This document shows positions 1 to 61,919 of a DNA stretch of 64,000 nt, one piece after another (positions within the stretch are counted from its first letter, which is position 1; each line of letters begins with the position of its first letter). The DNA lies in assembly GCA_964016885.1 (NCBI GenBank), contig OZ024745.1:58466001-58530000 (forward strand), read 5' to 3'. The DNA is from Eledone cirrhosa (taxonomy: Eukaryota). The notes under the pieces were generated by a model. That model saw only the letters and a list, made by a program, of their open reading frames with translations, ran no database searches and was not told the DNA's origin. The translations under genes and the position numbers were made by a program.

Positions 1-3000
1 AAGGCGTATAGGTGTGTGGTACTGGTGAAGGTGTGTAGGTGTGTAGTACTGGTGAAGGTGTGTAGGTGTGTGGTACTGGTGAAGGTGTGTAGGTGTGTGG
101 TACTGGTGAAGGTGTGTAGGTGTGTGGTACTGGTGAAGGTGTGTAGGTGTGTGGTACTGGTGAAGGTGTGTAGGTGTGTGGTACTGGAGAAGGTGTGTAG
201 GTGTGTGGTACTGGAGAAGGTGTGTAGGTGTGTAGTACTGGTGAAGGTGTGTAGGTGTGTGGTACTGGAGAAGGTGTGTAGGTGTGTGGTACTGGAGAAG
301 GTGTGTAGGTGTGTGGTACTGGTGAAGGTGTGTAGGTGTGTGGTACTGGAGAAGGTGTGTAGGTGTGTGGTACTGGTGAAGATGTGTAGGTGTGTGGTAC
401 TGGTGAAGGTGTGTAGGTGTGTGGTACTGGGGAAGGTGTGTAGGTGTGTGGTACTGGTGAAGGTGTGTAGGTGTGTGGTACTGGTGAAGGTGTGTAGGTG
501 TGTGGTACTGGTGAAGGTGTGTAGGTGTGTGGTACTGGAGAAGGTGTGTAGGTGTGTGGTACTGGAGAAGGTGTGTAGGTGTGTAGTACTGGTGAAGGTG
601 TGTAGGTGTGTGGTACTGGAGAAGGTGTGTAGGTGTGTGGTACTGGAGAAGGTGTGTAGGTGTGTGGTACTGGTGAAGGTGTGTAGGTGTGTGGTACTGG
701 AGAAGGTGTGTAGGTGTGTGGTACTGGTGAAGGTGTGTAGGTGTGTGGTACTGGTGAAGGTGTGTAGGTGTGTGGTACTGGTGAAGGTGTGTAGGTGTGT
801 GGTACTGGTGAAGGTGTGTAGGTGTGTGTTAATGGTTGAGATGTGGAGGTGTGTGGTACTGGTGAAGGTGTGTAGGTGTGGTACTGGTGAAGGTGTGTAA
901 GTGTGTGGTACTGGTGAAGGTGTGTAGATGTGTGGTACTGGTGAAGGTGTGTAGGTGTGTGGTACTGGTGAAGGTGTGTAGGTGTGTGGTATTGGTGAAG
1001 GTGTGTAGGTGTGTGGTATTGGTGTGTAGGTGTGTGGTACTGGTGAAGGTGTGTAGGTGTGTGGTACTGGAGAAGGTGTGTAGGTGTGTGGTACTGGTGA
1101 AGGTGTGTAGGTGTGTGGTACTGGAGAAGGTGTGTAGGTGTGTGGTACTGGTGAAGGTGTGTAGGTGTGTGGTACTGGTGTAGGTGTGGTGTGTGGTACT
1201 GGTGAAGGTGTGTAGGTGTGTGGTACTGGTGAAGGTGTGTAGGTATGTGGTACTGGTGTAGGTGTGGTGTGTGGTACTGGTGAAGGTGTGTAGGTGTGTG
1301 GTACTGGTGAAGGTGTGTAGGTGTGTGGTACTGGAGAAGGTGTGTAGGTGTGTGGTACTGGTGTAGGTGTGTAGGTGTGTGGTACTGGTGTAGGTGTGTG
1401 GTACTGGTGAAGGTGTGTAGATGTGTGGTACTGGTGAAGGTGTGTAGCTGTGTGGTACTGGTGAAGGTGTGTAGGTGTGTGGTACTGGTGAAGGTGTGTA
1501 GGTGTGTGGTACTGGTGAAGGTGTGTAGGTGTGTGGTACTGGTGAAGGTGTGTAGGTGTGTGGTACTGGTGAAGGTGTGTAGGTGTGTGGTACTGGTGAA
1601 GGTGTGTAGGTGTGTGGTACTGGTGTAGGTGTGGTGTGGTGTGTGGTACTGGTGAAGGCGTATAGGTGTGTGGTACTGGAGAAGGTGTGTAGGTGTGTGG
1701 TATTGGTGAAGGTGTGTAGGTGTGTGGTACTGGTGTAGGTGTGGTGTGGTGTGTGGTACTGGTGAAGGCGTATAGGTGTGTGGTACTGGAGAAGGTGTGT
1801 AGGTGTGTGGTACTGGAGAAGGTGTGTAGGTGTGTGGTACTGGTGAAGGTGTGTAGGTGTGTAGTACTGGAGAAGGTGTGTAGGTGTGTGGTATTGGTGA
1901 AGGTGTGTAGGTGTGTGGTACTGGTGAAGGCGTATAGGTGTGTGGTACTGGTGAAGGTGTGTAGGTGTGTAGTACTGGAGAAGGTGTGTAGATGTGTGGT
2001 ACTGGTGAAGGCGTATAGGTGTGTGGTACTGGTGAAGGTGTGTAGGTGTGTAGTACTGGTGAAGGTGTGTAGGTGTGTGGTACTGGTGAAGGCGTATAGG
2101 TGTGTGGTATTGGTGAAGGCGTGTAGGTGTGTGGTACTGGCGAAGGTGTGTAGCTGTGTGGTACTGGTGAAGGTGTGTAGGTGTGTGGTACTGGTGAAGG
2201 TGTGTAGGTGTGTGGTACTGGTGAAGGTGTGTAGGTGTGTGGTACTGGTGAAGGTGTGTAGGTGTGTGGTACTGGAGAAGGTGTGTAGGTGTGTGGTACT
2301 GGAGAAGGTGTGTAGGTGTGTAGTACTGGTGAAGGTGCGTAGGTGTGTGGTACTGGAGAAGGTGTGTAGGTGTGTGGTACTGGAGAAGGTGTGTAGGTGT
2401 GTGGTACTGGTGAAGGTGTGTAGGTGTGTGGTACTGGAGAAGGTGTGTAGGTGTGTGGTACTGGTGAAGGTGTGTAGGTGTGTGGTACTGGTGAAGGTGT
2501 GTAGGTGTGTGGTACTGGTGTAGGTGTGTGGTACTGGTGAAGGTGTGTAGGTGTGTGGTACTGGTGAAGGTGTGTAGGTGTGTGGTACTGGTGAAGGTGT
2601 GTAGGTGTGTGGTACTGGAGAAGGTGTGTAGGTGTGTGGTACTGGAGAAGGTGTGTAGGTGTGTAGTACTGGTGAAGGTGTGTAGGTGTGTGGTACTGGA
2701 TAAGGTGTGTAGGTGTGTGGTACTGGAGAAGGTGTGTAGGTGTGTGGTACTGGTGAAGGTGTGTAGGTGTGTGGTACTGGAGAAGGTGTGTAGGTGTGTG
2801 GTACTGGTGAAGGTGTGTAGGTGTGTGGTACTGGTGAAGGTGTGTAGGTGTGTGGTACTGGTGAAGGTGTGTAGGTGTGTGGTACTGGTGAAGGTGTGTA
2901 GGTGTGTGTTACTGGTTGAGATGTGGAGGTGTGTGGTACTGGTGAAGGTGTGTAGGTGTGGTACTGGTGAAGGTGTGTAAGTGTGTGGTACTGGTGAAGG

Positions 3001-5995
3001 TGTGTAGATGTGTGGTACTGGTGAAGGTGTGTAGGTGTGTGGTACTGGTGAAGGTGTGTAGGTGTGTGGTACTGGTGAAGGTGTGTAGGTGTGTGGTATT
3101 AGTGTGTAGGTGTGTGGTACTGGTGAAGGTGTGTAGGTGTGTGGTACTGGAGAAGGTGTGTAGGTGTGTGGTACTGGTGAAGGTGTGTAGGTGTGTGTTA
3201 CTGGTTGAGATGTGGAGGTGTGTGGTACTGGTGAAGGTGTGTAGGTGTGGTACTGGTGAAGGTGTGTAAGTGTGTGGTACTGGTGAAGGTGTGTAGATGT
3301 GTGGTACTGGTGAAGGTGTGTAGGTGTGTGGTACTGGTGAAGGTGTGTAGATGTGTGGTATTGGTGAAGGTGTGTAGGTGTGTGGTATTGGTGTGTAGGT
3401 GTGTGGTACTGGTGAAGGTGTGTAGGTGTGTGGTACTGGAGAAGGTGTGTAGGTGTGTGGTACTGGTGAAGGTGTGTAGGTGTGTGTTACTGGTTGAGAT
3501 GTGGAGGTGTGTGGTACTGGTGAAGGTGTGTAGGTGTGGTACTGGTGAAGGTGTGTAAGTGTGTGGTACTGGTGAAGGTGTGTAGGTGTGTGGTACTGGT
3601 GAAGGTGTGTAGGTGTGTGGTACTGGTGAAGGTGTGTAGGTGTGTGGTATTGGTGAAGGTGTGTAGGTGTGTGGTATTGGTGTGTAGGTGTGTGGTACTG
3701 GTGAAGGTGTGTAGGTGTGTGGTACTGGAGAAGGTGTGTAGGTGTGTGGTACTGGTGAAGGTGTGTAGGTGTGTGTTACTGGTTGAGATGTGGAGGTGTG
3801 TGGTACTGGTGAAGGTGTGTAGGTGTGGTACTGGTGAAGGTGTGTAAGTGTGTGGTACTGGTGAAGGTGTGTAGATGTGTGGTACTGGTGAAGGTGCGTA
3901 GGTGTGTGGTACTGGTGAAGGTGTGTAGATGTGTGGTATTGGTGAAGGTGTGTAGGTGTGTGGTATTGGTGTGTAGGTGTGTGGTACTGGTGAAGGTGTG
4001 TAGGTGTGTGGTACTGGAGAAGGTGTGTAGGTGTGTGGTACTGGTGAAGGTGTGTAGGTGTGTGTTACTGGTTGAGATGTGGAGGTGTGTGGTACTGGTG
4101 AAGGTGTGTAGGTGTGGTACTGGTGAAGGTGTGTAAGTGTGTGGTACTGGTGAAGGTGTGTAGATGTGTGGTACTGGTGAAGGTGTGTAGGTGTGTGGTA
4201 CTGGTGAAGGTGTGTAGGTGTGTGGTACTGGTGAAGGTGTGTAAGTGTGTGTTACTGGTTGAGATGTGTAGCTGTGTGGTACTGGTGAATGTGTGTAGAT
4301 GTGTGGTACTGGTGAAGGTGTGTAGATGTGTGGTATTGGTGAAGGTGTGTAGGTGTGTGGTATTGGTGTGTAGGTGTGTGGTACTGGTGAAGGTGTGTAG
4401 GTGTGTGGTACTGGTGAAGGTGTGTAGGTGTGTGGTACTGGTGAAGGTGTGTAGGTGTGTGGTATTGGTGAAGGAGTGTAGGTGTGTGGTACTGGCGAAG
4501 GTGTGTAGCTGTGTGGTACTGGTGAAGGTGTGTAGCTGTGTGGTACTGGTGAAGGTGTGTAGGTGTGTGGTATTGGTGAAGGAGTGTAGGTGTGTGGTAC
4601 TGGCGAAGGTGTGTAGCTGTGTGGTACTGGTGAAGGTGTGTATCTGTGTGGTACTGGTGAAGGTGTGTGGCACTGGTGAAGGTTTGTAGGTGTGGTAGTG
4701 GTGAAGGTGTGTAGGTGTGTGGTATTGGCGAAGGTGTGTAGCTGTGTGGTACTGGTGAAGGTGTGTAGCTGTGTGGTACTGGTGAAGGTGTGTAGGTGTG
4801 TGGTACTGGTGAAGGTGTGTAGGTGTGTGGTACTGGTGAAGGTGTGTAGGTGTGTGGTATTGGTGAAGGTGTGTAGGTGTGTGGTACTGGTGAAGGTGTG
4901 TAGGTGTGTGGTACTGGTGAAGGTGTGTAGGTGTGTGGTACTGGTGAAGGTGTGTAGGTGTGTGGTACTGGTGAAGGTGTGTATGTGTGGTACTGGTGAA
5001 GGTGTGTAGGTGTGTGGTACTGGTGAAGGTGTGTAGGTGTGTGGTACTGGTGAAGGTGTGTAGGTGTGTGGTACTGGTGAAGGTGTGTAGGTGTGTGGTA
5101 CTGGTGAAGGTGTGTAGCTGTGTGGTACTGGTGAAGGTGTGTAGCTGTGTGGTACTGGTGAAGGTGTGTAGGTGTGTGGTATTGGTGAAGGTGTGTAGGT
5201 GTGTGGTACTGGTGAAGGTGTGTAGGTGTGTGGTACTGGTGAAGGTGTGTAGGTGTGTTGTACTGGTGAAGGTGTGTATGTGTGGTACTGGTGAAGGTGT
5301 GTAGGTGTGTGCTACTGGTGAAGGTGTGTAGGTGTGTGGTACTGGTGAAGGTGTGAAGGTGTGGTACTGGAGAAGGTGTGTAGGTGTGTGGTACTGGCGA
5401 AGGTGTGTAGGTGTGTGGTACTGGTGAAGGTGTGTATGTGTGGTACTAGTGAAGGTGTGTAGGTGTGTGGTACTGGTGAAGGTGTGTAGGTGTGTGGTAC
5501 TGGTGAAGGTGTGTAGGTGTGTGGTACTGGTGAAGGTGTGTAGGTGTGTGGTACTGGTGAAGGTGTGTATGTGTGGTACTGGTGAAGGTGTGTAGGTGTG
5601 TGTTACTGGTTGAGATGTGGAGGTGTGTGGTATTGGTGAAGGTGTGTAGGTGTGTGGTACTGGTGAAGGTGTGTAGGTGTGTGGTACTGGTGAAGGTGTG
5701 TAGGTGTGGTACTGGTGAAGGTGTGTAGGTGTGTGGTACTGGTGAAGGTGTGTAGGTGTGTGGTATTGGTGAAGGTGTGTATCTGTGTGGTACTGGTGAA
5801 GGTGTGTATGTGTGGTACTGGTGAAGGTGTGTAGGTGTGTGTTACTGGTGAAGGTGTGTAGCTGTGTGGTACTGGTGAAGGTGTGTAGGTGTGTGGTATT
5901 GGTGAAGGTGTGTAGGTGTGTGGTACTGGTGAAGGTGTGTAGGTGTGTGGTACTGGTGAAGGTGTGTATGTGTGGTACTGGTGAATGTGTGTAGA
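1..5995. repeat. 27-bp G/T-rich minisatellite (GTACTGGTGAAGGTGTGTAGGTGTGTG)n with a local 289-bp higher-order period; lies in the PIG-S intron downstream of exon 13
   Basis: Unit read directly. The variant unit TTACTGGTTGAGATGTGGAG recurs at 289-bp spacing (ORF starts 2958, 3247, 3536, 3825, 4114). The array runs off the window start. Confidence 0.97.
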
Positions 5996-6004
5996 TGTGT
6001 GCAA

Positions 6005-6443
6005 TTGTGTTATGTACAAAGAAGAAGAGCTTCTTATGCTATGTACAGGAGAAATGAGCTTCAGCCATTCTCCCTCTAGGCAAGAACCATAGTTACAAAT
6101 TCTTCTGAGTGGGTAGCAGTGACAGTATATATGGTGGAGGCGTACTAATAATGGCAACTAGATGGATAAAGTGAATGAGGTGTGAGAATGTGCAATATGA
6201 CAATTAGGCTTGAACTAATGTTTCAGCTTTTATCTCTGCATATGCAACACAAGCTGTGTTTGTAGACAAACACAAGGACCACTTTTATGAAATTCTCTTG
6301 CAGATTACCTCAATGAAGAACTGATAATGACACCAGTACAGTATTTCAGTTGCAGACCTAATAGGCAACACCAAGACAAACTTCATTGTGCCTAGAGGTT
6401 TCAGCTTTGACATGAGAAATGAGCAAGTATCAAGTCTCCTGGA
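6005..6443 (+). mobile_element. Highly degenerate RTE LINE endonuclease (APE) remnant
   Basis: Broken translations such as YA.Q...HKDHFYE and GFSF.MRNEQ..LLE parallel the APE region of the RTE copy at 18120-19960. Confidence 0.55.
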
Positions 6444-6510
6444 AAATTATAATCTTGTGGGGAACAGAATTAACCTTTATTTAATAATGTTTTGCTTATT
6501 TTCTCTACAG

Positions 6511-6600
6511 GTTTTCAAGCTTCCAACAATCCCAATCTAAATATCATTGTTTATGTGCCAACACGAGACCAAAGTCCAATGTACATCAGAAACAATAAAG
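6511..6600 (+). pseudogene. Inverted duplicate of PIG-S exon 10; the duplicated block with intron flanks spans about 6443-6825
   Basis: 89/90 nt identical to the reverse complement of 16363-16452. AG at 6509-6510 and GT at 6601-6602 are retained. Flanks align to about 16180-16520. Confidence 0.93.
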
Positions 6601-7455
6601 GTACATAACTCTGTTTACTTTTGTAGCTGTAGTTTACTAGTTATTCTATTTCATATCAATACGGATGCATTGCTTCTAAATAATCAATCACCATCATCAT
6701 TATTTTATGTCTGCTTTAATATGCATATATTGTAATATTATTTTACTGTTTTCATATTATTTTGGTTATGATTTTTCCCATTTAAAATTGAAATCATAAT
6801 CCAACTTAGTTTATACTAAACTAGAAGCAGAAGGTTACAGAATATATACTCTGTATACCTGCATGCCAAGGATGAACATGCACTGGTACATTGATAAAAC
6901 AGACCCTGTACATTCTGTAAAGTGGTAGTGCCAGTGCCATTTAAAAACACACCCAGTACACTCTGTAAAGTGGTTGGCATTAGAATGTGCATCCAGCCAT
7001 AGAATACATGCAAATATGCAATGTATGAGCAAGATCAAGTCATTCTGACTCATCTGATCTCAGACTGTATCAACCTGTCCAACCCATACCAGAGTGAAAA
7101 GCAGACATAAAATGATGATAATGATACCCACTGTGAAGTGGTTTGCGTTAGGAAGGGCATACAGCAGTAGAAACTAGGCCAATATCAGAATGTATGAGGA
7201 AGATGTGGTAACAAGCCATCTAACATATGCAAGTATGGAAAATAGACATCATATGATAATAATGGTTCTTCTGATGTAGTTTTAATTTCATTTAACTGAT
7301 AATAGTATTTCATGTGGTGTTTTTAGCTAGTTTAGGCTTGTTATATGTTTTTGTTGGCTTGTATAAGGAAAAATTATATATAATGTATCACACCTCAGAT
7401 ATTGTGTGGACTATAAGGTCTTTGGTATGAAGAGTTTTCCTGTTGATAGAATTAA

Positions 7456-7675
7456 CTTTTAGTATTTAAACCAGCCATATCTGGCCAGAATTCTCTCACT
7501 TAATTCTGTTCAAACTGGCTTTAACCAGCCCCTCATACTGACATTAAGGTATTGTTCTCAAAATAAATAATATCAAAATCTCATAGATTCGATATTATGT
7601 GAAATAATTATGTGAGATAAAGTGTTTACCAAGAAAATACAATAGTAAATACAGAGTAATATAAATGTTAAAGGG
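7456..7675. mobile_element. TTAA-flanked MITE, piggyBac-type (diverged copy)
   Basis: TTAA C..TTTAG...TAAAGGG TTAA ends; body similar to 61417-61620. Confidence 0.7.
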
Positions 7676-8082
7676 TTAAGTATTTAGTCCACTACAGGGT
7701 ATATGGTACTAATTTATCTGGTAGACACAACTCAACAGAAACCAGATACTGTGGGTGAATGTGACATGATGAAGTTTGTCTTCTTAGTACCAGGATAGTG
7801 GGTGAGTTTTAATTTTAATTGTATTTAACTGTGCAATTGTATTTTGTGTGGTGTGTTTTGGCTGGATTAGGTTTGCTGTATTTAGTTGTTGAGTAGGATT
7901 GTGCAAGGACTGAATACGCATGTGTATCTTTTTTTCTCCCCAACTTTTTTCTTATTTTTCTTAACGAAACAGTAAGACTCTCTTCCTGCTATTTCAAGCA
8001 TTAAACTAATATATTTCTTCCATGAACTGTGCCGTTTGTTTTGTTATTTTTGTTATAACTTTTACATACATACATACATGTG

Positions 8083-8124
<42 letters not shown>

Positions 8125-8199
8125 CACACACACAAAGCACAAAGCTCCAAAGAGTTTCTGTCCATCATAGAAAGAAAAATATAAGAAACAACAACACAC

Positions 8200-8328
8200 C
8201 TCTTCTCCAATGGCGTCCTTGATCACAATATTACTGATCTCACCAAGCAGTTTGGCCAGTGACTGTAGAGTTGATGTAGAACTGACAATATTTTCAACAG
8301 CTCGAGATCGTAACCAGCCAGCAAGCTC
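8200..8328 (-). CDS. PIGS: PIG-S exon 13: ELAGWLRSRAVENIVSSTSTLQSLAKLLGEISNIVIKDAIGEE; the gene continues left of the window
   Basis: tag|GAG...GAG|gtgtgt, 129 nt, phase 0-0. Matches the conserved PIG-S segment EL..L...R.VEN......TL.SLA.LLG.ISNIVIKD (recalled from human PIGS). Confidence 0.96.
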
Positions 8329-9162
8329 CTACAAAAACAAAATAAACAAAATAATGACATTGTTTCTGGAAACATTGCATGTAAAATTAATCATGTCTGT
8401 TTGACCAGCTCTCTTTAACTCTTTCTCTCTCTCTTTCTTTCTTGTTCTCATCTACCAGTTTATCTACTTCGCTATAAACCTGTTTATCTATCAATCTGTC
8501 TAAATTTTACTTGTTCCTCTGTCTCTGCTCCTCAGATTTACCTTCTATCCTTGTTTTCCTCTCATTAGCTACACATCTCCCCCCCCCCCCCTCCCCCTCT
8601 CTCTATCAAGCGCACATAAAATCTGCTCTTTCTTCACCATCTAGCTTTTTTTTTTCTTTGATAATCTATTCTAACCCATGCTAGCGTGGAAAAATGATGA
8701 TGATGATGATGATGATTAAAACCCAGTTGTTTTATTTCTCATAGAAGCATATAGCTTGAAGCACATGCCTCTTCTTCCTTCAATTTCTGCTTTGTTCTTG
8801 TGTTTAATTGGCTTATATACAAAGAAATTCACATGAACAATTAATTTCCTATCATAATTAGACGTGGAATGTGTTTTTGCGAGAAAGAGATGGCATGATA
8901 AGCAACTGCAGGGAGGTGAATACATAATTCAGGGACAGACACTGCTGCCAACACAGAAAAAAAATGAGAAAGGAAAGAAAGATGCTGTTACTGAAAGAAA
9001 AGAATAAAAATATACATTAAGCAAATAACAGTGTATCATATGTCTAAGTAGCTGACAACATGTATTTCAGTTCAACAGAGAAGAAAACAGAGCGTTAATT
9101 TGTTTGTCTGCCACTTATAATTTTGTAACATGTTATTGTTGTAATTGGTGTTAGTTACAGTT

Positions 9163-9447
9163 GTGGAGGTGTGTGGCCTAATGGTAAGGGTGTTAGACTT
9201 GCGATCATGATGTCATGGGTTCGATTCCTGGGTTGGGTCGCATGTTGTGATCTTGAGCAAAACACTTCATTTCACGTTGCTCCAATATACTCAGCTGAAA
9301 TAAGTACCAGCTATAGCTGGGGGTTGAACCCTGCAATGGATTGGCATCCTGTCCAGTGGGGTGTCTTGTACTCTCAGTCACTTCACACAATGAAACCAGG
9401 ATAAGCCCCAGCCTAATCAACCTTAAATGGCTTAAGACAGACTTTAG
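9163..9447 (+). mobile_element. tRNA-headed CORE-type SINE; relatives at about 21845-22125 (-), 52775-53050 (+), 58955-59200 (+)
   Basis: A-box TGGCCTAATGG, B-box GGTTCGATTCC, then CORE-like TGTGATCTTGAGCAAAACACTT; several dispersed copies in the window. Confidence 0.8.
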
Positions 9448-10243
9448 TTAGTTACAGGCTCAGAGTGGTTGTAACTAACAACAAACTGCTAAATTAGCCA
9501 GTCAATAAATAGAGATTGGTAAACTAAGTACTAGACTGAAATAAGTACTGGATCAATATGACTGACTAAATCTTTGAAAGTAATGACCTAGCATTGCTGC
9601 AGTCCAATGACTAATATAAGTAAGAGAGTAAGTGTACACATTATACAAATTTTAAGAAAACTATTGACAAAGAAAAATAAAATAAAGTTGAACCACACAT
9701 CTAATATAATATAATGTGCATTTATTGATTTCTTTATTTAGAGAAAGGGTTGCGGATGGAAGAATTGATAGAATGTTAAACAAATGCTTGAGTTACATCT
9801 TTGTCTGTTTTGTGTTTAAACCACACATAGACTCATTGTCTTTCCTACTTCCAGGGTCAATAAAATAAGTACCAGATATATTTAATCTTCTATATACTGC
9901 CTCTAAATGGATGGCCTTGAGCATGCATTAGAAATCATAAATTTTATGATGAGAACAAGAGAGAAACTGTCTGTCTATTGTTGCTGTTGGCAGAGATGCT
10001 GGTGGTGTTTAGTCTCAGGTTAGTCTCAATCAAGTAAACATATATGTTCAAAAGCATTCCAGCTGTGATCATCCCATCTATTTCCCAGGTATACTACACT
10101 AAGGGCCTCATTATTTAATGTATCCTTCTTTGGTAGTGTGTAATTTGAGTAAAATTCCACTACTATTTCTAACAGGTTGAATGACCATGTAAATTCACCC
10201 CTCAGTGTCTTGTATATGTATGACTGAAAAACATGTCAGTTAA

Positions 10244-10428
10244 CCCTTTAGCATTCACATTACTCTATATATACTATTATATAACATAATATCGAATCTA
10301 TGAGATTTTGAAAGTATTTATTTTGAGAACAATACCTTAACATCAGTTTGAGTGACCAGTTACAGCCAGTTTCAACAGGAAAAAGTAGAGAATTCTGGCC
10401 GGTTTTGGTTAGTTTGAACATTAAAGGG
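10244..10428. mobile_element. TTAA-flanked MITE, piggyBac-type
   Basis: TTAA|CCCTTTAGCATT...TTAAAGGG|TTAA. Confidence 0.78.
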
Positions 10429-10650
10429 TTAAGAAAGGTATTTTGTGCTGTGTTGTCCATTAAGAAAAAAAATTATAGGTGCAATAATACGGTCTGATCA
10501 AACCTATATATGAAGTTTGATAGTATACAGTTATATAACTGCTATAGATCAGACAATATGTCAATATGATCAACCCTCCGAAACAATCATAAAACAATGA
10601 TATGAATAGGTAAAATAACTCAACTTTGTTGTTATTATTTTCATTGTTAA

Positions 10651-10834
10651 AGGCGGTGGATTGGCAGTATCGGTAGAGGGTCGGACACCATGCTTTCCAG
10701 CATAGTTACGTCCCTTTACGATCTGAGTTCAAATCCGAGGTTGACTTTGCCTTTCATCCTTATGGGATCGATAAAATAAAGTACCAGTAATGCACTGGGT
10801 AATTGCTGGCCTTGTGCCTAACGTAGAAACAATT
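10651..10834 (+). mobile_element. tRNA-derived SINE, family A, with an 18-bp TSD
   Basis: GGCGGTGGATTGGCAGTATCGGTAG head, GAGTTCAAATCC B-box, 3' end ...GTAGAAACAATT. ATTATTTTCATTGTTAAA is duplicated on both sides. Confidence 0.88.
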
Positions 10835-10944
10835 ATTTTCATTGTTAAATTAATACCTAATGTATATATATATATATATATATCATTATCATCATTGTTT
10901 AACGTCCATCTTCCACACGCTAGCATGGGTAGGACAGAATTATA

Positions 10945-11565
10945 TACTCGAGAGAAGGCTACGCTGGTATGGTCACGTGATGCGCATGAAAGACGACAGC
11001 TGTATAACAAAGTGCAGGGCAATAAAGATAGACGGTAGCTACGGAGTAGGCAGACCCAGAAAAACCTGGGACGAGCTGATAAATTCCGACCTCACACACT
11101 TACACCTCTCCAAGACAATGTCACTGGACCGAGACCTTTGGCGGTACTCAGTAATAGAGAAGACCCGCCTTACCTAAATACAAAGTAAAACCTACTACAG
11201 TCAGTAGGCATCTCTAACAAAATACACCCATGTCCCACCACCCCCACCCCATCCACATCGCCCCTTTCAATGTAAAGTTATGTTGGTGCCACAACATCCA
11301 GGTCAAAACAAATGAGATCGTGTAGGTGTCACGACAAAAAAACACACAGTCCACGCTGTAATGTGGCCGTGTAGGCAACACGGTAAAAACCTCCCAGCCC
11401 CACACTGTAAATGTGGTTGGTGTTAGGAAGGGCATCCAGCTGTAGAAAACCCGCCAGACAGTCCTATGCGAGCAAGACAATCACTCTTGCCTCAAGTGGG
11501 AAAACCCCCGTCCAAACCCATGCAAGCATGGAACACGGACGTTAAACGATGATGATGATGATGAT
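10945..11565 (+). mobile_element. 5'-truncated RTE LINE 3' end with (GAT)n tail
   Basis: LERRLRWYGHVMRM...GRPRKTW motif; near-identical to 43565-44166. Confidence 0.92.
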
Positions 11566-11575
11566 ATATATATAT

Positions 11576-12070
11576 CAAGTAAGTATGTTTTGAAACAGTG
11601 AGCAAGTTTGAAATTAGAAATAGAAGCTTTCACCGTATTTTTTTACTAAAGAAATTTTAGCCTGATAGTGGGGTTTATAACCCTCAGAGATAACCAAAGA
11701 TGTGGGTTCGACTCCCATGTACGTCAATACTCATCTTTTTCCATTTCTCTGAGGGTTATAAACCCCACTATCAGGCTAAAATTTCTTTAGTAAAAAAATA
11801 CGGTGAAAGCTTCTATTTCTAATTTCAAACTTGCTCCCTGTTTCAAAACATACTTACTTGTCATCATACTTACTAATAATATAGCTTCTAATTTGAATGG
11901 AAGGAGATGGGTGATGTGTTGGTAACACAGTGGTCTGGATAACCAAAGATGTGGGTTCGACTCCCATGTACGTCAATACTCATCTTTTTCCCTTTCTCTG
12001 AGGATTATAAACCCCACTATCAGGCTAAAATTTCTTTAGTCAAAAAATACGGTGAAAGCTTCTATTTCTA

Positions 12071-12076
<6 letters not shown>
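11576..12076 (+). mobile_element. Non-coding 249-bp-period element with a tRNA-like core, a 115-bp inverted arm and a partial tandem copy, embedded in (TA)n; Penelope-like architecture
   Basis: 11576-11690 is the reverse complement of 11746-11860 (1 mismatch). 11689-11827 is repeated directly at 11938-12076. B-box GGTTCGACTCC in a T-arm-like hairpin is followed by TTTTT. Confidence 0.7.
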
Positions 12077-12101
<25 letters not shown>

Positions 12102-12553
12102 TCTTTCACTGGTATCAGTTATACAACTGCAGCCATATTATGGCATCAACTTCAACGTTCTTAGTCAATCATGTTGACTCCAGTAATTATTTCAGTCTGA
12201 CTATTTTATTGATCTCTATTTATGGAAACACCAAGTAACCATCAACGTCATTTAATATTTTCCCTGCTAGCAAGGGTTAAACCATATCATATATAATAGA
12301 CTACATTATAAACACAGATACAAACACATATATGCAACAAGCTCTTACAAAGTCTCCATTTACCAATTTGTTTCTCACAAGGCATTGGTTAACCTCAGGC
12401 TACAGTAGAGGACACAAGCACAAGGTACTGAGCAATGGAACTGAACCTCGAATCACATGGTTGTGAAGTGAACTTCTTAGCCATCAAATAAACGAGATGT
12501 ACATGTACCTCAGATATAAAATTGTATACACTTAAGCAAAAGATTTTACTTAC

Positions 12554-12610
12554 CCATTCAGTGACCCCGGCAGAACCAATAGGAGAAAAAGTAACATTTG
12601 AACTCCGAAC
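12554..12610 (-). CDS. PIGS: PIG-S exon 12: VRSSNVTFSPIGSAGVTEW
   Basis: tag|GTT...TGG|gtaagt, 57 nt, phase 0-0; joins the G.T.W|EL motif. Confidence 0.92.
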
Positions 12611-13246
12611 CTACATGTAATGAACAAGAAAAATATAACTTTATATTTTTTTAATACAGACAATTTTTTTTAGTCATTTCAAAGAAACATTTGACCAAAT
12701 GCGCAAATTGCACCTATTCACAACTAATTTGATTATACTGATAAATTTTATCAACCCCAGTAGTTGACTGGTAATTATAAGAATGAAAGGAGATCACATT
12801 GACAAGGTTTGAACAAAGAAAGCAAAGAACTGGAACAAATAGCAGATGCTCTGGCAATTCTGCCAATCTACCAGTCAAATAGATATTTTCACACAACAAA
12901 CGTTTTAAGGCCATTTTCCTTGCTAAAGCTGTAGATAGACTTATGGGCCCAATGACAGGCTCCATACTCATCATGGGGTCTTTTTTGTGGCAATGTTATA
13001 GAGTAGGATGCTCTTTCTGGTGCCAATGCTTTTAGTCGCCACTTACAACACACAGAGACACAGTGTACTTATTCTAAACCAGATACACACAATAATATTT
13101 TTCAAAAAAAAAAGAAAAAAATATATTTTAGCAGATTATGAAAAACTGGGCCCCAAAACTCACTTATTTCAGTAACATCAAATCAAAAAGACCCTATAAG
13201 AGGCATTTCTAAATTGAGGTCACTTAAAAACACATAAAATTAATAT

Positions 13247-13468
13247 CCAATGGTCCCTCAACAACCCTCTTCTGAGTTTTCCATCTTCATAATGATGCAA
13301 TATTGATTTGGACATGAGGCCATAAATTTCTGGAGAAAAGTCATCATCATCATCAACATTTATGATGATGATGACATTATTCTAGAAATTTGTGACCACA
13401 TGCTCAAATCAATATTACTTTATTATCAAGATGGAAAATTCTGAAGAGGGTTGTTGATCAGTCATTGG
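13247..13468. repeat. Imperfect long palindrome (arms about 105 bp) centred on (TCA)n/(TGA)n
   Basis: TCAACAACCCTCTTC/GAAGAGGGTTGTTGA, AATATTGATTTG/CAAATCAATATT and GTCATCATCATCA/TGATGATGATGAC pair symmetrically. Confidence 0.85.
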
Positions 13469-13644
13469 AAATCAGCATATTAAATGAAACTCAGTATTTG
13501 ATTGGTACTTTATTTTATCAACCCTAGAAAGATGAAAAACAAGGTTAAACTTAGTGAGATTTCAAAATATTTTTGTTCAATACTCTACCAATTCTGCAAT
13601 CTAATATCACAACAGCAAAATATTAACAATAATAAATTTCTCAC

Positions 13645-13814
13645 CTGGAGATTAAGAAGCATTCGAATTTGGGTAAGAAATATTTGCATTACTTGATGCA
13701 AATCAATATTCACTCTCATAGGGAGAGTATCATTTGGGCCAGGAGAAGGAGTGTTGTAAATATGGATGCCGCCCCAACGTGGGCTTAAGAAGGAATTGCT
13801 TCGTTCTCGCTGCC
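13645..13814 (-). CDS. PIGS: PIG-S exon 11: (G)QRERSNSFLSPRWGGIHIYN...VMQIFLTQIRMLLNLQ
   Basis: tag|GG...CAG|gtgaga, 170 nt, phase 1-0; carries the hallmark N.F.SPRWGGI..YN motif. Confidence 0.97.
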
Positions 13815-13902
13815 CTAAAAATGAAAAATAAACAATCCAAAATAAAGGTGAAATGTAGAAAAATTCAGAATTCAACTTACTATCATTATATAGTTTGATA
13901 CA

Positions 13903-14050
13903 CGGTGGATTGGCAGTATCGGTAGAGGATCGGACACCATGCTTTGACGCATAGAGTTACGGCCCTTGCCATTCTGAGTTCAAATCCCACCGAGGTTAAC
14001 TTTGCCTTTCATCCTTACGGGGTCGATAAAATAAAGTACCAGTAATGCTG
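13903..14050 (+). mobile_element. Family A SINE, 3'-truncated
   Basis: Same head and body as 10651-10834. Confidence 0.82.
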
Positions 14051-14086
14051 ATAAATGATGATATATATATACACATATATATATAT

Positions 14087-14745
14087 AACTAAGGGAGAAA
14101 TTAGGAATAAGAGGAATCAGATGTTGTTTACTCGAGAGAAGACTACGTTGGTATGGTCACGTGATGCGCATGAAAGACGACAGCTGTATAAAAAAGTGCA
14201 GGGTGATAAAAATAGACGGTAGCCACGGAGTAGGCAGACCCAGAAAAACCTGAGACGACTTGATAAATTCCGACCTCACATACTTACACCTCTCCAAGAC
14301 AATGTCACTGGACCAAGATCTTTGGCGCTACACAGTAATACAGAAGACCCGCCTTGCCTAAGTACAAAGCGAAACCTAGTCAGTAGGCACCTCTAACAAA
14401 AATACACCTCCGTCCCACCACCCCCACACCATCCACACCACTCCTTTCGATGTAAAGTTATGTTGGTACCACAACATCCAGTCCGAAATAAATGAGGTCG
14501 TGTAGGTGTCATGACAAAAAAAAACACAGTCTACGCTGTAATGTGGCCGTGTAGGTAACATGGTAAAAACCTCCCAGTTCCACACTGTAAACGTGGTTGG
14601 TGTTAGGAAGGGCATCCAGCCGTAGAAAACCCACCAGACAGTCCTATACGAGCAAGACAACCAATCTTGCCTCAAGTGGGGAAAACTCCCGTCCAAACCC
14701 ATGCAAGCGTGGAAGATGGACGTTAAACGATGATGATGATGATGA
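14087..14745 (+). mobile_element. 5'-truncated RTE LINE 3' end with (GAT)n tail
   Basis: Aligns to 43522-44166. Confidence 0.9.
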
Positions 14746-14759
14746 ATATACAAATATGA

Positions 14760-15560
14760 AGCAGCTGCAGATTCCTTTAACTTCCCTATTCTTCTCATCC
14801 AGGTTGTCCTCTGTTGTTGAGTTCATCTAGCCCTAACTATATGATCACTAACTACTAGATTATGTTGGGAGGTGCATTCTTCACCAGGGAGGGACTTTGT
14901 GTTTACAACTGTCACTCTAACTCATCTTCTGGAGAGGATAAAATCTATCTTGCTGGCATGCTCACTTGATCTATAGGTGATCAAGTGATTGCCTGTTTTT
15001 TTTTAAGTTTGTGTTACAGATAGAAAGATTTTTGGCATCACAGAATTCCAGAAGCCTGGAACTTTCTACATTTCTAGCACCGAATCCATAACCTCCACAA
15101 ATCCCTTCAAAGCCATCGCAGAATTGCCCAACATGCCCATTAAAGTTGCCCACAATTATTATGAAGTCACCATTGCTTATTTGGGAAGTCGTGTGCATTA
15201 GGGATCTGTCTTTTAGTCCATCTGACAGTCTTGATTGAGGTGCATATGCAGATATAATTCTATTTAGTACTAGTCAAGTTTGATGATTCTGTCATTCACT
15301 CTATTTACAGCAAATACCTTGTCTACCCCTTTTTCTGCTACCATAATCCATACTGTTGTCTTTTCCCGCCCAGAAAAAAATGTAGCATCCTTTTTTGGCC
15401 CACAGACTCCATTTAGTCTCTCGTACACACAGCACAAATCAATTTTCTTTCATCTCTATAATCTCTTCTGATCTCCCTGTCATCATGCCTACGTTGATGG
15501 TGCCAGCTCTGAAGTTAAGAAGTTCATCAGAAGGGTGAGAGGAAGAAGATGAAAACTTGG
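14760..15560 (-). mobile_element. Degenerate RTE 5' and APE endonuclease fragment
   Basis: GTINVGMMTGRSEEIIE and GNFNGHVG...GYGFGARN.E..RLLEFC motifs, with stops. Confidence 0.8.
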
Positions 15561-15869
15561 GAGAGGGAGTGGATGATAGACTGGTGTTCATGTTCCATGT
15601 CTGAAATAGAGAAGAGCATTCACATGGTTGTCCAGAGATAGATGGTGGATTCATATTCATTTTTAGGAATGCTCCAGTTTCGTATTCCATTTGCCATACA
15701 GAACAACGGTAGTAGAAGTAGTAGTAGTTATTGCGATAGATATTCAGTTAACAGTTACAAGATATTTGTGCTGCTGTGCTTTGATTGGGCTAGGTGACTA
15801 TGGTGGCTCCTTTAAATGCCCAGAGGGTTCAGTAGCAGTAGTTGATAATTTCTGTTACCTGGGTCACTA

Positions 15870-16067
15870 AATTTGTAGTGGAGGTGGGTGTTCCGAAAGT
15901 ACAGTAGCCAGAGTGAGAACAGAATGGAGAAAGTTCAGGAAGTTACTAATGCTACTTGCTATAAAAGGTTTTTCCCTCAAATTAAAAAGCAGATTATATG
16001 ATACTTGTATACGAACAGCTACGTTGCATGGTAGTGAGACCTGGGCACTGTATGCAGAGGACCTGAG
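15870..16067 (+). mobile_element. RTE fragment (post-RT region)
   Basis: W.KFR.L..LLA.KGFSLK.K.RLY..CIRTA.LHGSETWAL, as in the 42402 ORF. Confidence 0.85.
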
Positions 16068-16362
16068 TAGCTCCCACTTATACAACACCTTCCATGTTCC
16101 CTCACCATTGAGAAAACTACAGAAGTGGCAGTATTTCATTTTTTTCTAAATTCCAAATGGGACCCCATCTTTTTTTTTTTCCAGTCCAGTTTAAACTAAG
16201 TTAGGATATGGTTTCATTTTAAACTGAGAAAATCAAAACCAAAATACAAGAACAAAGCAAAATAATGTTACAAGGTTGATTGGATGAAAGCAATGCATTA
16301 GTATTGATATAAAATGGAATAACTAGTAAACTACAGCTACAATAGTAAACAGAGTTATGTAC

Positions 16363-16452
16363 CTTTATTGTTTCTGATGTACATTGGACTTTGGTCTCGT
16401 GTTGGCACATAAACAATGAAATTTAGATTGGGATTGTTGGAAGCTTGAAAAC
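16363..16452 (-). CDS. PIGS: PIG-S exon 10: (G)FQASNNPNLNFIVYVPTRDQSPMYIRNNK
   Basis: cag|GT...AAAG|gtacat, 90 nt, phase 1-1; matches the P.LNF..YVP....SP.YI motif. Confidence 0.96.
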
Positions 16453-18119
16453 CTGTAGAGAAAATAAGCAAAAATTTATTAAATTACGGTTAATTCGTTT
16501 TTGCTAAGATTATAATTTTCTGAGTTATTTGCATTTGCATGATACACTATGATTTCCTTTGTTTATAGAATTTTTTTTTTTTTTACACATTTTATTGAGT
16601 GAATATTAAAAAAAAAAATTTAATATTTTCCAAATGATAACCTCATTTTTAGAGATGAAAATCTATTTTAATATTTATATCCAAACAACACCAGATGTCT
16701 TTTCTTGGATGTGTTCAGAATACTTGACTGAGTTTAGATATGTACTTGTGTTAGAAGCTGAGGAAGAAAGTCGAAATTGAGCAACAAGCTAGAAAATCAC
16801 ATATTGGTTTTTGAGTATTAGAAACATAGGATCATTTTATAACTGAGAGTTAACTGTGATGGTGTTTTTATCATCAGTTAGTCAAAAGAAAGGAGAGAAA
16901 TAGAGAAGCAGTTATCCTCAAAAAGGAAGCTTGGCCATAATAAATAGGACTCAGTTAAAGTCATCCAAAAGCCAAGTGGTGGATTAAATCTACCACATAA
17001 GTAGGCTCTGGCAAGATTTGAACTCAGAACACAAAGAACCGGAACAAATTCCAAAAGGTATTCCTCTGACATTAACAATTCTGCCAGTTCATCACCCTAG
17101 ACTGGTTATATTTATCAACCCCAGAAGAAAGAAGACAGGCAAAGTTGACTTCCATAGAATTGGAACTCGGTACATGAAGAACCTAAACATAATACTACAA
17201 GGCACTTCATCTACCGCTCTAAGATGTCTGTCAATGCAAATGTTTTGTGGGATGGCATATGCTGTATGACAAAAAAAAAACAAATATACCAAAAGAAGTA
17301 AAGCTAAAAGTAATTTATGCCAAGACAAGTAGAGGTTGAAAAACTTCAAATAAATCAAATATGCTGAAAAAATGCTATTATTATCAGACAGATGAGATAC
17401 AGCAAGAGTGATAGATATAAGATGTCCTTGTAAATAATAGTTATAATTTTCTTCTATATTTGCAACAAGAACAGATGATGATAATAATGTAATAATAATG
17501 ATGGTTGTGGTGGTGAGGGTTGTGACAATTTGGCTTAAATGACATCATCTTCCCACTGACTGGCTGACAACAATTAAGGAAAAGAAAATATATTTGGGCT
17601 GAGCTATTTTGAGAGTAATTTTGCCCTACATATAACCACTGATGTTGCCATCTGCTCTCGATATGAAATGAAACAAATGCTTTGCCTTTCATCATTTCTG
17701 GGTTGGCAAAATAATGTACCAGTCAAGTACACTTTCCTCCCCCAAAACCGCTCATCTTGTTCCTAAATTAGAAGCCATTATTTAACATAATCATCATTTT
17801 ATGTCCACCTGCTATTATTATTATTATAAGTCTTATTTTTATTGCATGTCATCACTGCATTACTGAGCACGGCTCTCTGCAGCTTGGGTGTGTGCAGTGT
17901 GGTTTTTTATGGTGTTGTTTCTATTGTATTGAGAGTATTCTTCTTATGTGTGCAGTGCTTAGTAGTGCGATTTTTTATATATGTTATATAAAAATCTGTA
18001 AGGCATGGAATTTTGGTTACATGTTTGTGTTTTTTTACCATTCCATGAGCACCTATTATTATCACTAAACAGACATGCAGTCACCAGCACAGGAAAAGAG
18101 AAACACACTCATGCAACCC

Positions 18120-23654: not shown

Positions 23655-23769
23655 CAAGTTTAGTTTCCAATGGATTTATCATGTGTGGAAGGTTCTGGAG
23701 ATCAAGAAAGTTTTCTCCGGTGTCGTAATCTTTGTGAGGTCTTATGTAAAATCCAGGATAGAATAATGT
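23655..23769 (-). CDS. PIGS: PIG-S exon 9: TLFYPGFYIRPHKDYDTGENFLDLQNLPHMINPLETKL(G)
   Basis: tag|ACA...CTTG|gtaaat, 115 nt, phase 0-1; LPH.INP.E..LG motif. Confidence 0.96.
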
Positions 23770-26154: not shown

Positions 26155-29100
26155 GTAGGTTGGTGATGGCTGGGGTAGCAGTGTGATGGTAGGTTGGTGA
26201 TGGCTGGGGTAGCAGTGTGATGGCAAGGGTAGCAGTGTGATGGTAGGTTGGTGATGGCAGGGGTAGCAGTGTGATGGTAGGTTGATGATGGCTGGGGTAG
26301 CAGTGTGATGGTAGGTTGATGATGGCAGGGGTAGCAGTGTGATGGTAGGTTGGTGATGGCTGAGGTAGCAGTGTGATGGTAGGTTGGTGATGGCAGGGGT
26401 AGTAGTGTGATGGTAGGTTGGTGATGGCTGAGGTAGCAGTGTGATGGTAGGTTGGTGATGGCAGGGGTAGTAGTGTGATGGTAGGTTGGTGATGGCAGGG
26501 GTAGCAGTGTGATGGTAGGTTGGTGATGGCTGAGGTAGCAGTGTGATGGTAGGTTGGTGATGGCAGGGGTAGTAGTGTGATGGTAGGTTGGTGATGGCAG
26601 GGGTAGTAGTGTGATGGTAGGTTGGTGATGGCAGGGGTAGCAGTGTGATGGTAGGTTGGTGATGGCTGAGGTAGCAGTGTGATGGTAGGTTGGTGATGGC
26701 AGGGGTAGTAGTGTGATGGCAGGGGTAGCAGTGTGATGGTAGGTTGATGATGGCTGGGGTAGCAGTGTGATGGTAGGATGGTGATGGCTGGGGTAGCAGT
26801 GTGATGGTAGGTTGGTGATGGCTGAGGTAGCAGTGTGATGGTAGGTTGGTGATGGCTGGGGTAGCAGTGTGATGGTAGGTTGGTGATGGCTGAGGTAGCA
26901 GTGTGATGGTAGGTTGGTGATGGCAGGGGTAGCAGTGTGATGGTAGGTTGGTGATGGCTGAGGTAGCAGTGTGATGGTAGGTTGGTGATGGCAGGGGTAG
27001 TAGTGTGATGGCAGGGGTAGCAGTGTGATGGTAGGTTGATGATGGCTGGGGTAGCAGTGTGATGGTAGGATGGTGATGGCAGGGGTAGCAGTGTGATGGT
27101 AGGTTGGTGATGGCAGGGGTAGCAGTGTGATGGCAGGGGTAGCAGTGTGATGGTAGGTTGATGATGGCTGGGGTAGCAGTGTGATGGTAGGATGGTGATG
27201 GCAGGGGTAGCAGTGTGATGGTAGGTTGGTGATGGCAGGGGTAGCAGTGTGATGGTAGGTTGATGATGGCTGGGGTAGCAGTGTGATGGTAGGATGGTGA
27301 TGGCAGGGGTAGCAGTGTGATGGTAGGATGGTGATGGCAGGGGTAGCAGTGTGATGGTAGGTTGGTGATGGCAGGGGTAGCAGTGTGATGGCAGGGGTAG
27401 CAGTGTGATGGTAGGTTGATGATGGCTGGGGTAGCAGTGTGATGGTAGGATGGTGATGGCAGGGGTAGCAGTGTGATGGTAGGTTGGTGATGGCAGGGGT
27501 AGCAGTGTGATGGCAAGGGTAGCAGTGTGATGGTAGGTTGGTGATGGCAGGGGTAGCAGTGTGATGGTAGGTTGATGATGGCTGGGGTAGCAGTGTGATG
27601 GTAGGTTGATGATGGCAGGGGTAGCAGTGTGATGGTAGGTTGGTGATGGCTGAGGTAGCAGTGTGATGGTAGGTTGGTGATGGCAGGGGTAGTAGTGTGA
27701 TGGTAGGTTGGTGATGGCTGAGGTAGCAGTGTGATGGTAGGTTGGTGATGGCAGGGGTAGTAGTGTGATGGTAGGTTGGTGATGGCAGGGGTAGCAGTGT
27801 GATGGTAGGTTGGTGATGGCTGAGGTAGCAGTGTGATGGTAGGTTGGTGATGGCAGGGGTAGTAGTGTGATGGTAGGTTGGTGATGGCAGGGGTAGTAGT
27901 GTGATGGTAGGTTGGTGATGGCAGGGGTAGCAGTGTGATGGTAGGTTGGTGATGGCTGAGGTAGCAGTGTGATGGTAGGTTGGTGATGGCAGGGGTAGTA
28001 GTGTGATGGCAGGGGTAGCAGTGTGATGGTAGGTTGATGATGGCTGGGGTAGCAGTGTGATGGTAGGATGGTGATGGCTGGGGTAGCAGTGTGATGGTAG
28101 GTTGGTGATGGCTGAGGTAGCAGTGTGATGGTAGGTTGGTGATGGCTGGGGTAGCAGTGTGATGGTAGGTTGGTGATGGCTGAGGTAGCAGTGTGATGGT
28201 AGGTTGGTGATGGCAGGGGTAGCAGTGTGATGGTAGGTTGGTGATGGCTGAGGTAGCAGTGTGATGGTAGGTTGGTGATGGCAGGGGTAGTAGTGTGATG
28301 GCAGGGGTAGCAGTGTGATGGTAGGTTGATGATGGCTGGGGTAGCAGTGTGATGGTAGGATGGTGATGGCAGGGGTAGCAGTGTGATGGTAGGTTGGTGA
28401 TGGCAGGGGTAGCAGTGTGATGGCAGGGGTAGCAGTGTGATGGTAGGTTGATGATGGCTGGGGTAGCAGTGTGATGGTAGGATGGTGATGGCAGGGGTAG
28501 CAGTGTGATGGTAGGTTGGTGATGGCAGGGGTAGCAGTGTGATGGTAGGTTGATGATGGCTGGGGTAGCAGTGTGATGGTAGGATGGTGATGGCAGGGGT
28601 AGCAGTGTGATGGTAGGATGGTGATGGCAGGGGTAGCAGTGTGATGGTAGGTTGGTGATGGCAGGGGTAGCAGTGTGATGGCAGGGGTAGCAGTGTGATG
28701 GTAGGTTGATGATGGCTGGGGTAGCAGTGTGATGGTAGGATGGTGATGGCAGGGGTAGCAGTGTGATGGTAGGTTGGTGATGGCAGGGGTAGCAGTGTGA
28801 TGGCAGGGGTAGCAGTGTGATGGTAGGTTGATGATGGCTGGGGTAGCAGTGTGATGGTAGGATGGTGATGGCAGGGGTAGCAGTGTGATGGTAGGTTGGT
28901 GATGGCAGGGGTAGCAGTGTGATGGTAGGTTGGTGATGGCAGGGGTAGCAGTGTGATGGTAGGTTGATGATGGCTGGGGTAGCAGTGTGATGGTAGGTTG
29001 GTGATGGCAGGGGTAGCAGTGTGATGGTAGGTTGGTGATGGCTGGGGTAGCAGTGTGATGGTAGGTTGGTGATGGCAGGGGTAGCAGTGTGATGGTAGGT

Positions 29101-29441
29101 TGGTGATGGCAGGGGTAGCAGTGTGATGGTAGGTTGGTGATGGCTGGGGTAGCAGTGTGATGGTAGGTTGGTGATGGCAGGGGTAGCAGTGTGATGGTAG
29201 GTTGGTGATGGCAGGGGTAGCAGTGTGATGGTAGGTTGATGATGGCTGGGGTAGCAGTGTGATGGTAGGTTGGTGATGGCAGGGGTAGCAGTGTGATGGT
29301 AGGTTGGTGATGGCAGGGGTAGCAGTGTGATGGTAGGTTGGTGATGGCAGGGGTAGCAGTGTGATGGTAGGTTGATGATGGCAGGGGTAGCAGTGTGATG
29401 GTAGGTTGGTGATGGCTGAGGTAGCAGTGTGATGGTAGGTT
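26155..29441. repeat. 34-bp minisatellite (GGTAGGTTGGTGATGGCAGGGGTAGCAGTGTGAT)n with 20-bp deletion units and a 1290-bp block duplication
   Basis: Unit read directly. The rare variant GGCAAGGGTAG occurs at 26222 and 27512, with the same variant order following each. Confidence 0.96.
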
Positions 29442-47099: not shown

Positions 47100-47127
47100 C
47101 ATTCTCAATACGTTTATTTTTATCCAT
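47100..47127 (-). CDS. PIGS: Probable PIG-S exon 1 coding part: MDKNKRIEN
   Basis: gctATGG start context; ends G|gtaaaa in phase 1, which fits exon 2; short N-terminus as expected; locally CpG-richer. Not supported by homology. Confidence 0.7.
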
Positions 47128-51615: not shown

Positions 51616-52004
51616 CTGTCTTTTGTTCTGGTGTTGGCTAGGTTGTTCACCCCTTCCTTTACATTTTCTTTAATATTGTAACATTAAAAGAATATATCTT
51701 TCTGAATGAATCGGGAACTATTTATAATGTTACCGAAGGGTTTGTAATGTTATTTATGTATATATTTAAAACATATTTGTTATGTTATTCTACTGTAAAT
51801 TAATTTTTATGCTCTGTTTATATTTTGATTCTGAAAGAATTGCCAACGATTTGTAATGTTATTTATACAACTATGAATAAATTTACTAGTATGTTAGAAT
51901 ATTTACAACCGCAAAAAAACAAAAAAAAAAGTTTCAATACAAAGCAAGTCTTTGATTTCCGAATGGTTAAACGTCAGCAGAAGGACACCCAGGTAGAAGA
52001 GGAT

Positions 52005-61620: not shown

Positions 61621-61919
61621 TTAATGTAAAGCAAATGGAAAGCTGTAGCATTGACAGAAATAGTTTTAAATTGGTTCCAGAACAAAGTTGCTTATTTGGT
61701 TTCCTAAGTACTACTATCACAACAGCCACACACACACACTAATTAATCTAATAATAATTATTATTATTATTGCACATAATATTTGTTGAAATAAACAACA
61801 GTTTAATACATTCTTAATTTTGATGCATTAATAATCGATTATTTTACAGATACATCACACACACACACAAACAGATACAGACACACATTTGTTTGAAGCT
61901 AATTGTTCACTGTCACTAC

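Follow-up and report, generated by a model that had tools for sequence, protein, structure and literature searches.

Inside intron 13 of its PIG-S gene, Eledone cirrhosa carries an inverted duplicate of exon 10 of that same gene, and this duplicate is both real and non-random. Its core, which covers the exon together with its two splice sites, is nearly identical to the source, while the flanks of the duplicate have diverged. We give a probability of roughly 0.6 to the reading that it is a leftover duplicate not under selection, the core of which gene conversion from the exon has overwritten in this lineage. Conversion and lineage-specific selection would predict an identical three-way pattern, and the conversion event proposed here is reconstructed from sequence comparison.

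The PIG-S gene and its inverted exon

Positions refer to the window, the whole stretch of 64,000 nucleotides analysed, and the features discussed are collected in the table. The PIG-S model, built from the window and 30 kb of neighbouring assembly with tblastn and splice-site checks, comprises 16 coding exons with AG/GT at 15 of 15 introns and encodes 546 residues with no internal stop. The encoded protein is 89-93% identical to three octopod proteins, its exon 11 peptide is 98% identical to PIG-S of Octopus vulgaris and O. bimaculoides, and the O. sinensis protein matches the human GPI transamidase subunit PIG-S (7wld_S) with an E value of 1e-98; the gene is the orthologue of this human subunit. 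Exon 14 begins 8.8 kb outside the window start and exons 14-16 all lie outside it, so that the copy sits inside intron 13, antisense to exon 10 and in the same primary transcript. An earlier note on this DNA had reasoned that the C-terminus of PIG-S lies beyond exon 13 and that the copy should therefore belong to the same pre-mRNA in complementary orientation, and the gene model bears this out, as it does the length and phase given there for exon 10 and the 356 nt of exons 11-13, which the two arms of the duplicate enclose. A transcript ending before the copy, which that note had considered, does not apply, because exons 14-16 follow.

A search for the PIG-S family found one locus with seven matches, one of them being the copy. 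No other PIG-S exon has a duplicate in 94 kb. Among 27 homologous proteins, which are clustered and mostly genome-derived, none has lost exon 10 (0/27), and across the same 27 no recoding-type change in exon 10 was seen among octopods. One of the protein models examined (P0001, from Octopus vulgaris) joins exon 13 out of frame to exon 15, omitting exon 14 and acquiring an unrelated C-terminus as a result; this omission is probably an annotation error.

Table. Features of the PIG-S locus and of the inverted duplicate, with mismatches between copy and source by interval (MAFFT)
Feature	Position	Strand	Remarks
PIG-S exons 1-8	between 47127 and 32851	-	start codon at 47127
PIG-S exon 9	23655..23769	-	115 nt
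PIG-S coding exon 10	16363..16452	-	90 nt, phase 1-1, AG/GT, 34 adenosines
PIG-S exon 11	13645..13814	-	170 nt, within loop
PIG-S exon 12	12554..12610	-	57 nt, within loop
PIG-S exon 13	8200..8328	-	129 nt
PIG-S intron 13	from 8199, past window start, to exon 14 at G000:C5:58457214	-	16,985 nt
Source segment (intron 9 end, exon 10, intron 10 start)	16179..16520	-	homology stops at 11-A run
Unique left flank of copy	6360..6441	+	joined to copy in organism B also
Inverted duplicate of PIG-S exon 10 and flanking intron	6442..6826	+	antisense on PIG-S pre-mRNA, inside intron 13
Near-identical tract of copy	6490..6619	+	polypyrimidine tract, AG, exon copy, GT donor and 19 nt; 1 mismatch/130
Copy of 90-nt exon	6511..6600	+	one change, at 6543 (Phe314 to Ile)
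40-nt insertion in copy	6690..6729	+	high-copy repeat fragment
Mismatches, outer interval	6442..6489		10/47 aligned columns and 1 gap
Mismatches, acceptor side	6490..6510		0/21
Mismatches, exon copy	6511..6600		1/90 (at 6543)
Mismatches, donor side	6601..6646		1/46 (at 6620)
Mismatches	6647..6675		4/29
Mismatches	6676..6826		25/109 and 3 indels, one being the 40-nt insertion

Self-BLAST aligned 6442-6826 (+) with 16520-16179 as an inverted duplicate in two segments, the first pairing 6442-6675 with 16520-16288 (234 nt, 92.7% identity, E 4e-94) and the second 6730-6826 with 16273-16179 (78%). The earlier note had given 6443-6825 against about 16180-16520, with two mismatches in the 157 nt of a core at 6490-6646, diverged flanks and an insertion of about 40 nt, and our alignments agree on each of these points: the core has 2/157 mismatches, and 6490-6619 has 1/130 against 39/185 in the outer columns. 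When the 41 mismatches were shuffled over 342 columns, a 130-column window with one mismatch or fewer appeared in 0 of 100,000 runs, and a 157-column window with two or fewer likewise in 0 of 100,000. The non-random identity seen by that note is thus upheld, but not the gradient it described, since the upstream edge of identity is a sharp step at 6489/6490. The interval 6490-6619 is likely the conversion tract, with a possible extension to 6646. Its single exonic change puts Ile at residue 314, which is Phe in 26 of 27 homologues.

In a genome search the duplicated segment matched at these two places only, which is not proof of rarity, and each of the two junctions of the copy matched once. 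Contigs of run X1 (organism A), possibly the source sample of the assembly itself, carry the copy with both flanks, with no difference over 6100-6519 and one over 6590-6937, and at 6490-6619 have copy and exon merged in a single contig of 130 nt. The summed contig depth in X1 reaches 10,798 in the bin 6689-6719 of the insertion, against about 7-8 in the unique flanks. The RAD run X6 had zero depth across 6348-6657, the core included. No target-site duplication is evident at the ends of the copy, and no poly(A) tail was seen at the copy. On the pre-mRNA strand, the homology between source and copy stops at a run of 11 A (16170-16180), which would fit an RNA-templated origin; apart from this run at the 3' end of the source, a retro-insertion is not supported.

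The locus holds several other repeats. Most of intron 13 consists of a 27-nt minisatellite with about 469 copies (12.4 kb), which occupies 1-6001 and a further 6.4 kb before the window start, and intron 8 contains a G-rich 34/102-nt minisatellite of 3.2 kb (26208-29441). Just upstream of the PIG-S start codon lies a direct duplicate of 368 nt (49540-49907 and 51251-51618, 99.7% identical, 1.3 kb between), and upstream of the gene an 800-nt palindrome with arms 94% identical (61917-62713). The loop between exon 10 and the copy has two intronic hairpins, at 11576-11860 (285 nt) and 13258-13457 (200 nt); the only Rfam match over 6000-17000 is an unrelated, tRNA-like one (11913-11975) beside the first of these hairpins.

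A second species and the case for gene conversion

Of eight runs listed for the segment, none as a holder of RNA (which says nothing about expression), four (X1, X4, X5 and X6) were compared over 6100-7000. The public contigs of run X4 provided the data on organism B; these are separate contigs, none of which spans the whole copy of B. Three of them are relevant. Record 9 extends from 6360 to 6563, taking in 82 nt of the unique flank to the left of the copy, and departs from the window by 22 letters and 2 gaps. Record 10 (6534-6704) departs from it by 17 letters and 11 gap positions, and record 11 (6534-6675) by 6 letters, without gaps. We read records 9 and 10 as the copy of B and record 11 as its true exon locus, because six is also the number of differences between exon and copy of this species over that interval and the three that are listed match. 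The orientation of the copy in B was taken from the common left flank. Since B has the copy joined to the same unique left flank, the copy is older than the split of the two species, and the possibility raised by the earlier note of a species-private copy does not apply.

That note had also proposed to compare the divergence profile of the copy between species, and here the copy is present in B but its core has decayed. Within 6490-6619 the copy of B has at least nine substitutions (6495, 6507, 6508, 6515, 6527, 6530, 6564, 6592 and 6593) and a 9-nt deletion at 6608, next to the donor. At 6564, 6592 and 6593 it is directly unlike B's own exon contig. None of the nine substitutions listed for the core is G-U-compatible (0/9); the six exonic ones hit five codons, all five non-synonymously, and one of these alters Asn309, which is Asn in 27 of 27 homologues. 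Within the tract, the copy of this species shows one difference to its own exon and at least ten, plus the 9-nt deletion, to the copy of B. The changes at 6620 and 6664 look common to the copies of both species, as judged for these two species from absence among the listed rows. With its core decayed in this one other species, the copy is not a conserved pairing element. On the source side, the first 75 nt of intron 10 (16288-16362) appear unchanged or nearly so between the species, judging from the count of six differences, with P of 0.002-0.016 for zero changes at 5.5-8.5% divergence; this stretch may contain an element for splicing or pairing that predates the copy.

Copy and exon thus compared over the tract differ at 1 of 130 positions here, and at no fewer than 9 of 121 plus the 9-nt deletion in B (Fisher p 0.008). 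Copy-specific changes of this lineage number about 6 in 80 nt of flank against 1 in 130 nt of core (p 0.013), where the figure of about six is our own reading of contig rows and four of the six are clustered, maybe as one event. These flank changes are specific to this copy, which argues that the lineage is not simply slow-mutating. For a neutral copy of a frozen source, 11-16 changes would be expected over the 130 nt (P 2.6e-4 to 1.8e-6); set against the one found here and the nine or more in B, this indicates that the core was reset or protected in one lineage. The copy bears two marks of a non-allelic conversion tract, namely a short near-identical tract in an older, diverged duplicate, and a closer likeness to its paralogue than to its orthologue.

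The scenario we favour has three steps. A local duplication of about 345 nt, placed 10 kb away, would have occurred before the species split; the copy would then have decayed neutrally, as is visible in B and in the flanks of this species; and after the split a non-allelic conversion of 130-157 nt, from exon to copy, would have reset the core in this lineage. Conversion would initiate most easily where the constrained exon holds identity highest, and the fit of the tract to the exon and both splice sites is explained by conversion only in this indirect way. Conversion from copy to exon, or a crossover inverting exons 11-13, would presumably be purged because of the damage to PIG-S, such that tracts running from exon to copy alone would survive. 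As a by-product, the nascent RNA would be able to form a long duplex with exon 10, for which a function is unnecessary. Detectable incidental editing of exon 10 would be compatible with this neutral reading, and we regard it as possible, with the odds somewhat against it.

The distance between the arms, 9,352 nt in DNA, falls within the range of about 10 kb for which gene conversion between Alus is reported (PMC8230782). In 894 kb around the window, a clean 100-nt tract was found in 17 of 835 diverged repeat pairs. Leaving the present pair aside, such tracts occur in 4 of 44 pairs spaced by 2-15 kb and in 11 of 694 spaced by more than 50 kb (p 0.009); when only permutation-significant tracts are counted, the figures are 2 of 44 and 5 of 694 (p 0.06). 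The excess comes from direct pairs, the other inverted pairs at 2-15 kb having none (0/14); the bins at 0-2 kb (0/13) and 15-50 kb (1/83) were outside the test. As the pairs of this background are non-independent, its dependence on distance supports conversion weakly. Within 50 kb, the same 894 kb contain 20 loose low-copy pairs, 11 of them inverted, including the exon 10 pair. An argument that host DNA in this region is often duplicated locally in inverted orientation was dropped: the six other inverted pairs that were checked are bordered by (TA)n or other simple repeats and resemble hairpins or the ends of transposons.

Pairing with exon 10 and other explanations

The earlier note had proposed selection for pairing or gene conversion as the source of the core's identity; conversion is the half that we retain. 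According to the other half, the copy pairs with exon 10 in nascent RNA and was kept by selection in this lineage, its role having been lost in B, with ADAR editing, masking of splice sites, a circle of exons 11-13 or small-RNA dampening of PIG-S as candidate outcomes. The clean tract does coincide with the exon and both splice sites, and the duplex predicted for the isolated arms of the 157-nt core (-266 kcal/mol) is far more stable than their self-folds (-19 and -28 kcal/mol). Moreover, this is the sole exon-touching pair among 73 inverted pairs of at least 80 nt in the primary transcript. The arms are 9.4-9.8 kb apart while the transcript is unspliced, but prior splicing of introns 10-12 would shorten the loop from 9,762 to 1,955 nt, at a time when 15,227 nt of intron 13 are still untranscribed, and editing is reported for Alu pairs up to 2,000 nt apart (PMC2533698). 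This shortening of the loop makes an accidental pairing plausible under either reading. Against selection stand the decay of the core in B with no G-U-compatible change, and the fact that editing complementary sequences are recognised by conservation across species (PMC5705066). In this species, too, G-U-compatible mismatches are not enriched (10 against 13 of A-C type, p 0.68). Single A-to-G changes in exon 10 would alter the residue at 25 of 34 adenosines and the exon is kept in 27 of 27 homologues, so that hyper-editing or skipping is more likely to be harmful. Taken with the unedited contig described below, these observations make selection for pairing unlikely.

The contig in question, 1,876 nt long and from run X5 (organism A), matches only 6510-6601 within the compared 6100-7000, at record positions 932-1023. 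Its one difference to the copy is the exon's letter at 6543, and it runs unbroken through the exon. The first base of exon 10 being base 908 of the CDS, the contig would correspond to a complete mRNA whose leader is 25 nt long, and we read it as mRNA, X5 not being recorded as RNA. It contains no A-to-G change in exon 10, which concerns one contig of a kind that drops minor variants. It shows that a form with exon 10 included and unedited exists and dominates the X5 sample, whereas minor editing, skipping and circles are invisible in contigs. As a contig of unstated tissue it says little on editing itself, because editing of Alu-type hairpins is generally of low efficiency (PMC9479739) and robust recoding in squid is mostly neural (PMC9068888). 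The terms PIGS, PIG-S and GPI transamidase had no match in the supplements of PMC8382921, PMC4384741, PMC9989829, PMC7703385 and PMC9068888, an uninformative result, as these files (seven for PMC9989829 and one for each of the others, that of PMC9068888 having 3,805 characters) concern other species and perhaps lack the full editing tables.

A stronger proposition is that the exon copy, kept matched by gene conversion, pairs with exon 10 after splicing of introns 10-12 and drives substantial ADAR recoding or skipping here and not in the relative; we hold this to be improbable. Elsewhere in the gene, intron 14 contains a 450-nt hairpin (G000:C5:58454422-58454871), 97.8% perfect, with 440 nt paired and -383 kcal/mol, which ends 92 nt before the acceptor of exon 15 and would present ADAR with a stronger local target than the duplex at exon 10 does.

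Neither conversion nor selection would be needed if the source were constrained around the exon and the copy had escaped mutation there by luck. Over 6534-6675 the exon contig of B is unlike this copy at six sites, the same count as for the exon of this species, which implies that the exon loci of the two species are near-identical, including 75 nt of intron, and makes the source flank look constrained. Neutral divergence between the species is maybe only about 6% (word share 0.14), and the edges of the tract were chosen after the fact. However, the expectation of 11-16 changes already assumes a frozen source, a scan-corrected simulation at half the flank rate gave one change or fewer in 1 of 100,000 runs, and the copy of B did acquire its nine or more changes; chance escape thus appears to us an unlikely account as well.

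Two further explanations fare much worse. The copy retains an intact AG, GT and polypyrimidine tract and an open frame, as would an exon in use in a + strand transcript, a second PIG-S gene fragment or a trans-splicing donor. The + strand paralogue envisaged in the earlier note does not apply, given a single locus with no other exon copied in 94 kb; in addition, the sole exonic change of the copy hits the conserved Phe314, the five altered codons in B include Asn309, and the X5 contig has the exon letter at 6543 and is unbroken through the exon, all of which leave a coding role for the copy very unlikely. Least probable is an artefact of assembly or polishing in which exon reads overwrote the copy: the collapsed contig of X1 does show the exon letter at 6543, so that this difference is unconfirmed outside the assembly, but the X1 contigs, built separately, end precisely at 6490/6519 and 6590/6619, which is where they should end if the two loci have every 31-mer of that stretch in common, and the depth of the collapsed contig (11.3) is nearer to that of a popped one-base bubble (12.5) than to that of full identity (14.8).

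Related systems and significance

No published account of this arrangement was found in the titles and abstracts searched, a scope that leaves most subscription papers outside. Drosophila hpRNAs and plant inverted-repeat silencing alleles are cases where inverted gene-fragment duplicates yield silencing small RNAs. The PIG-S arrangement is like them in being an inverted gene-fragment duplicate transcribed in cis with its source, and differs in that its copy is intronic, spliced out and separated by a long loop.

The nearest likeness is to non-allelic conversion between Alu pairs (PMC8230782): homologous segments 9.4 kb apart, anciently diverged flanks, and a short homogenised tract in one lineage only. 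Here, in contrast, a single-copy coding exon is partnered with its own duplicate in an intron, with no transposons, and selection on the exon would leave the surviving conversion one-way. Editing complementary sequences of ADAR, for example that of insect Syt1 (PMC5705066 and PMC9479739), are similarly intronic antisense partners within the same primary transcript, and the PIG-S copy also lies in a clade with heavy recoding. Unlike them, it is not conserved between two related species, arose by duplication of the target itself, and is near-perfect over a whole exon 9.8 kb away. It would act in the manner of an editing complementary sequence if it pairs, but as it fails the test of conservation across species (PMC5705066), we do not class it as one. 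Inverted Alu pairs can undergo editing, cause exons to loop out or lie on either side of circular RNAs (PMC2533698 and PMC13019027), and the present arms likewise enclose exons within one pre-mRNA; the differences are that one arm is here the exon itself with its splice sites, and that the arms lie much farther apart than the 2 kb usual for edited Alu pairs, unless introns 10-12 have already been removed.

The PIG-S locus is likely a clear case, if a small one, of an inverted exon duplicate that lies in an intron and was homogenised in one lineage, and it cautions that an exon copy may show high identity without selection. It also constitutes a natural experiment, with a near-perfect antisense partner of 130-157 nt in one species and a decayed one in its relative. 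In coleoids, the structures behind most recoding sites have been inferred from conservation of their flanks (PMC5705066), and the contrast between the two species could test whether a long-range intronic duplex suffices for coleoid recoding. If the copy did act as a self-made editing guide, it would be a caught-in-the-act route to new lineage-specific recoding sites in coleoids, with a natural decayed control.
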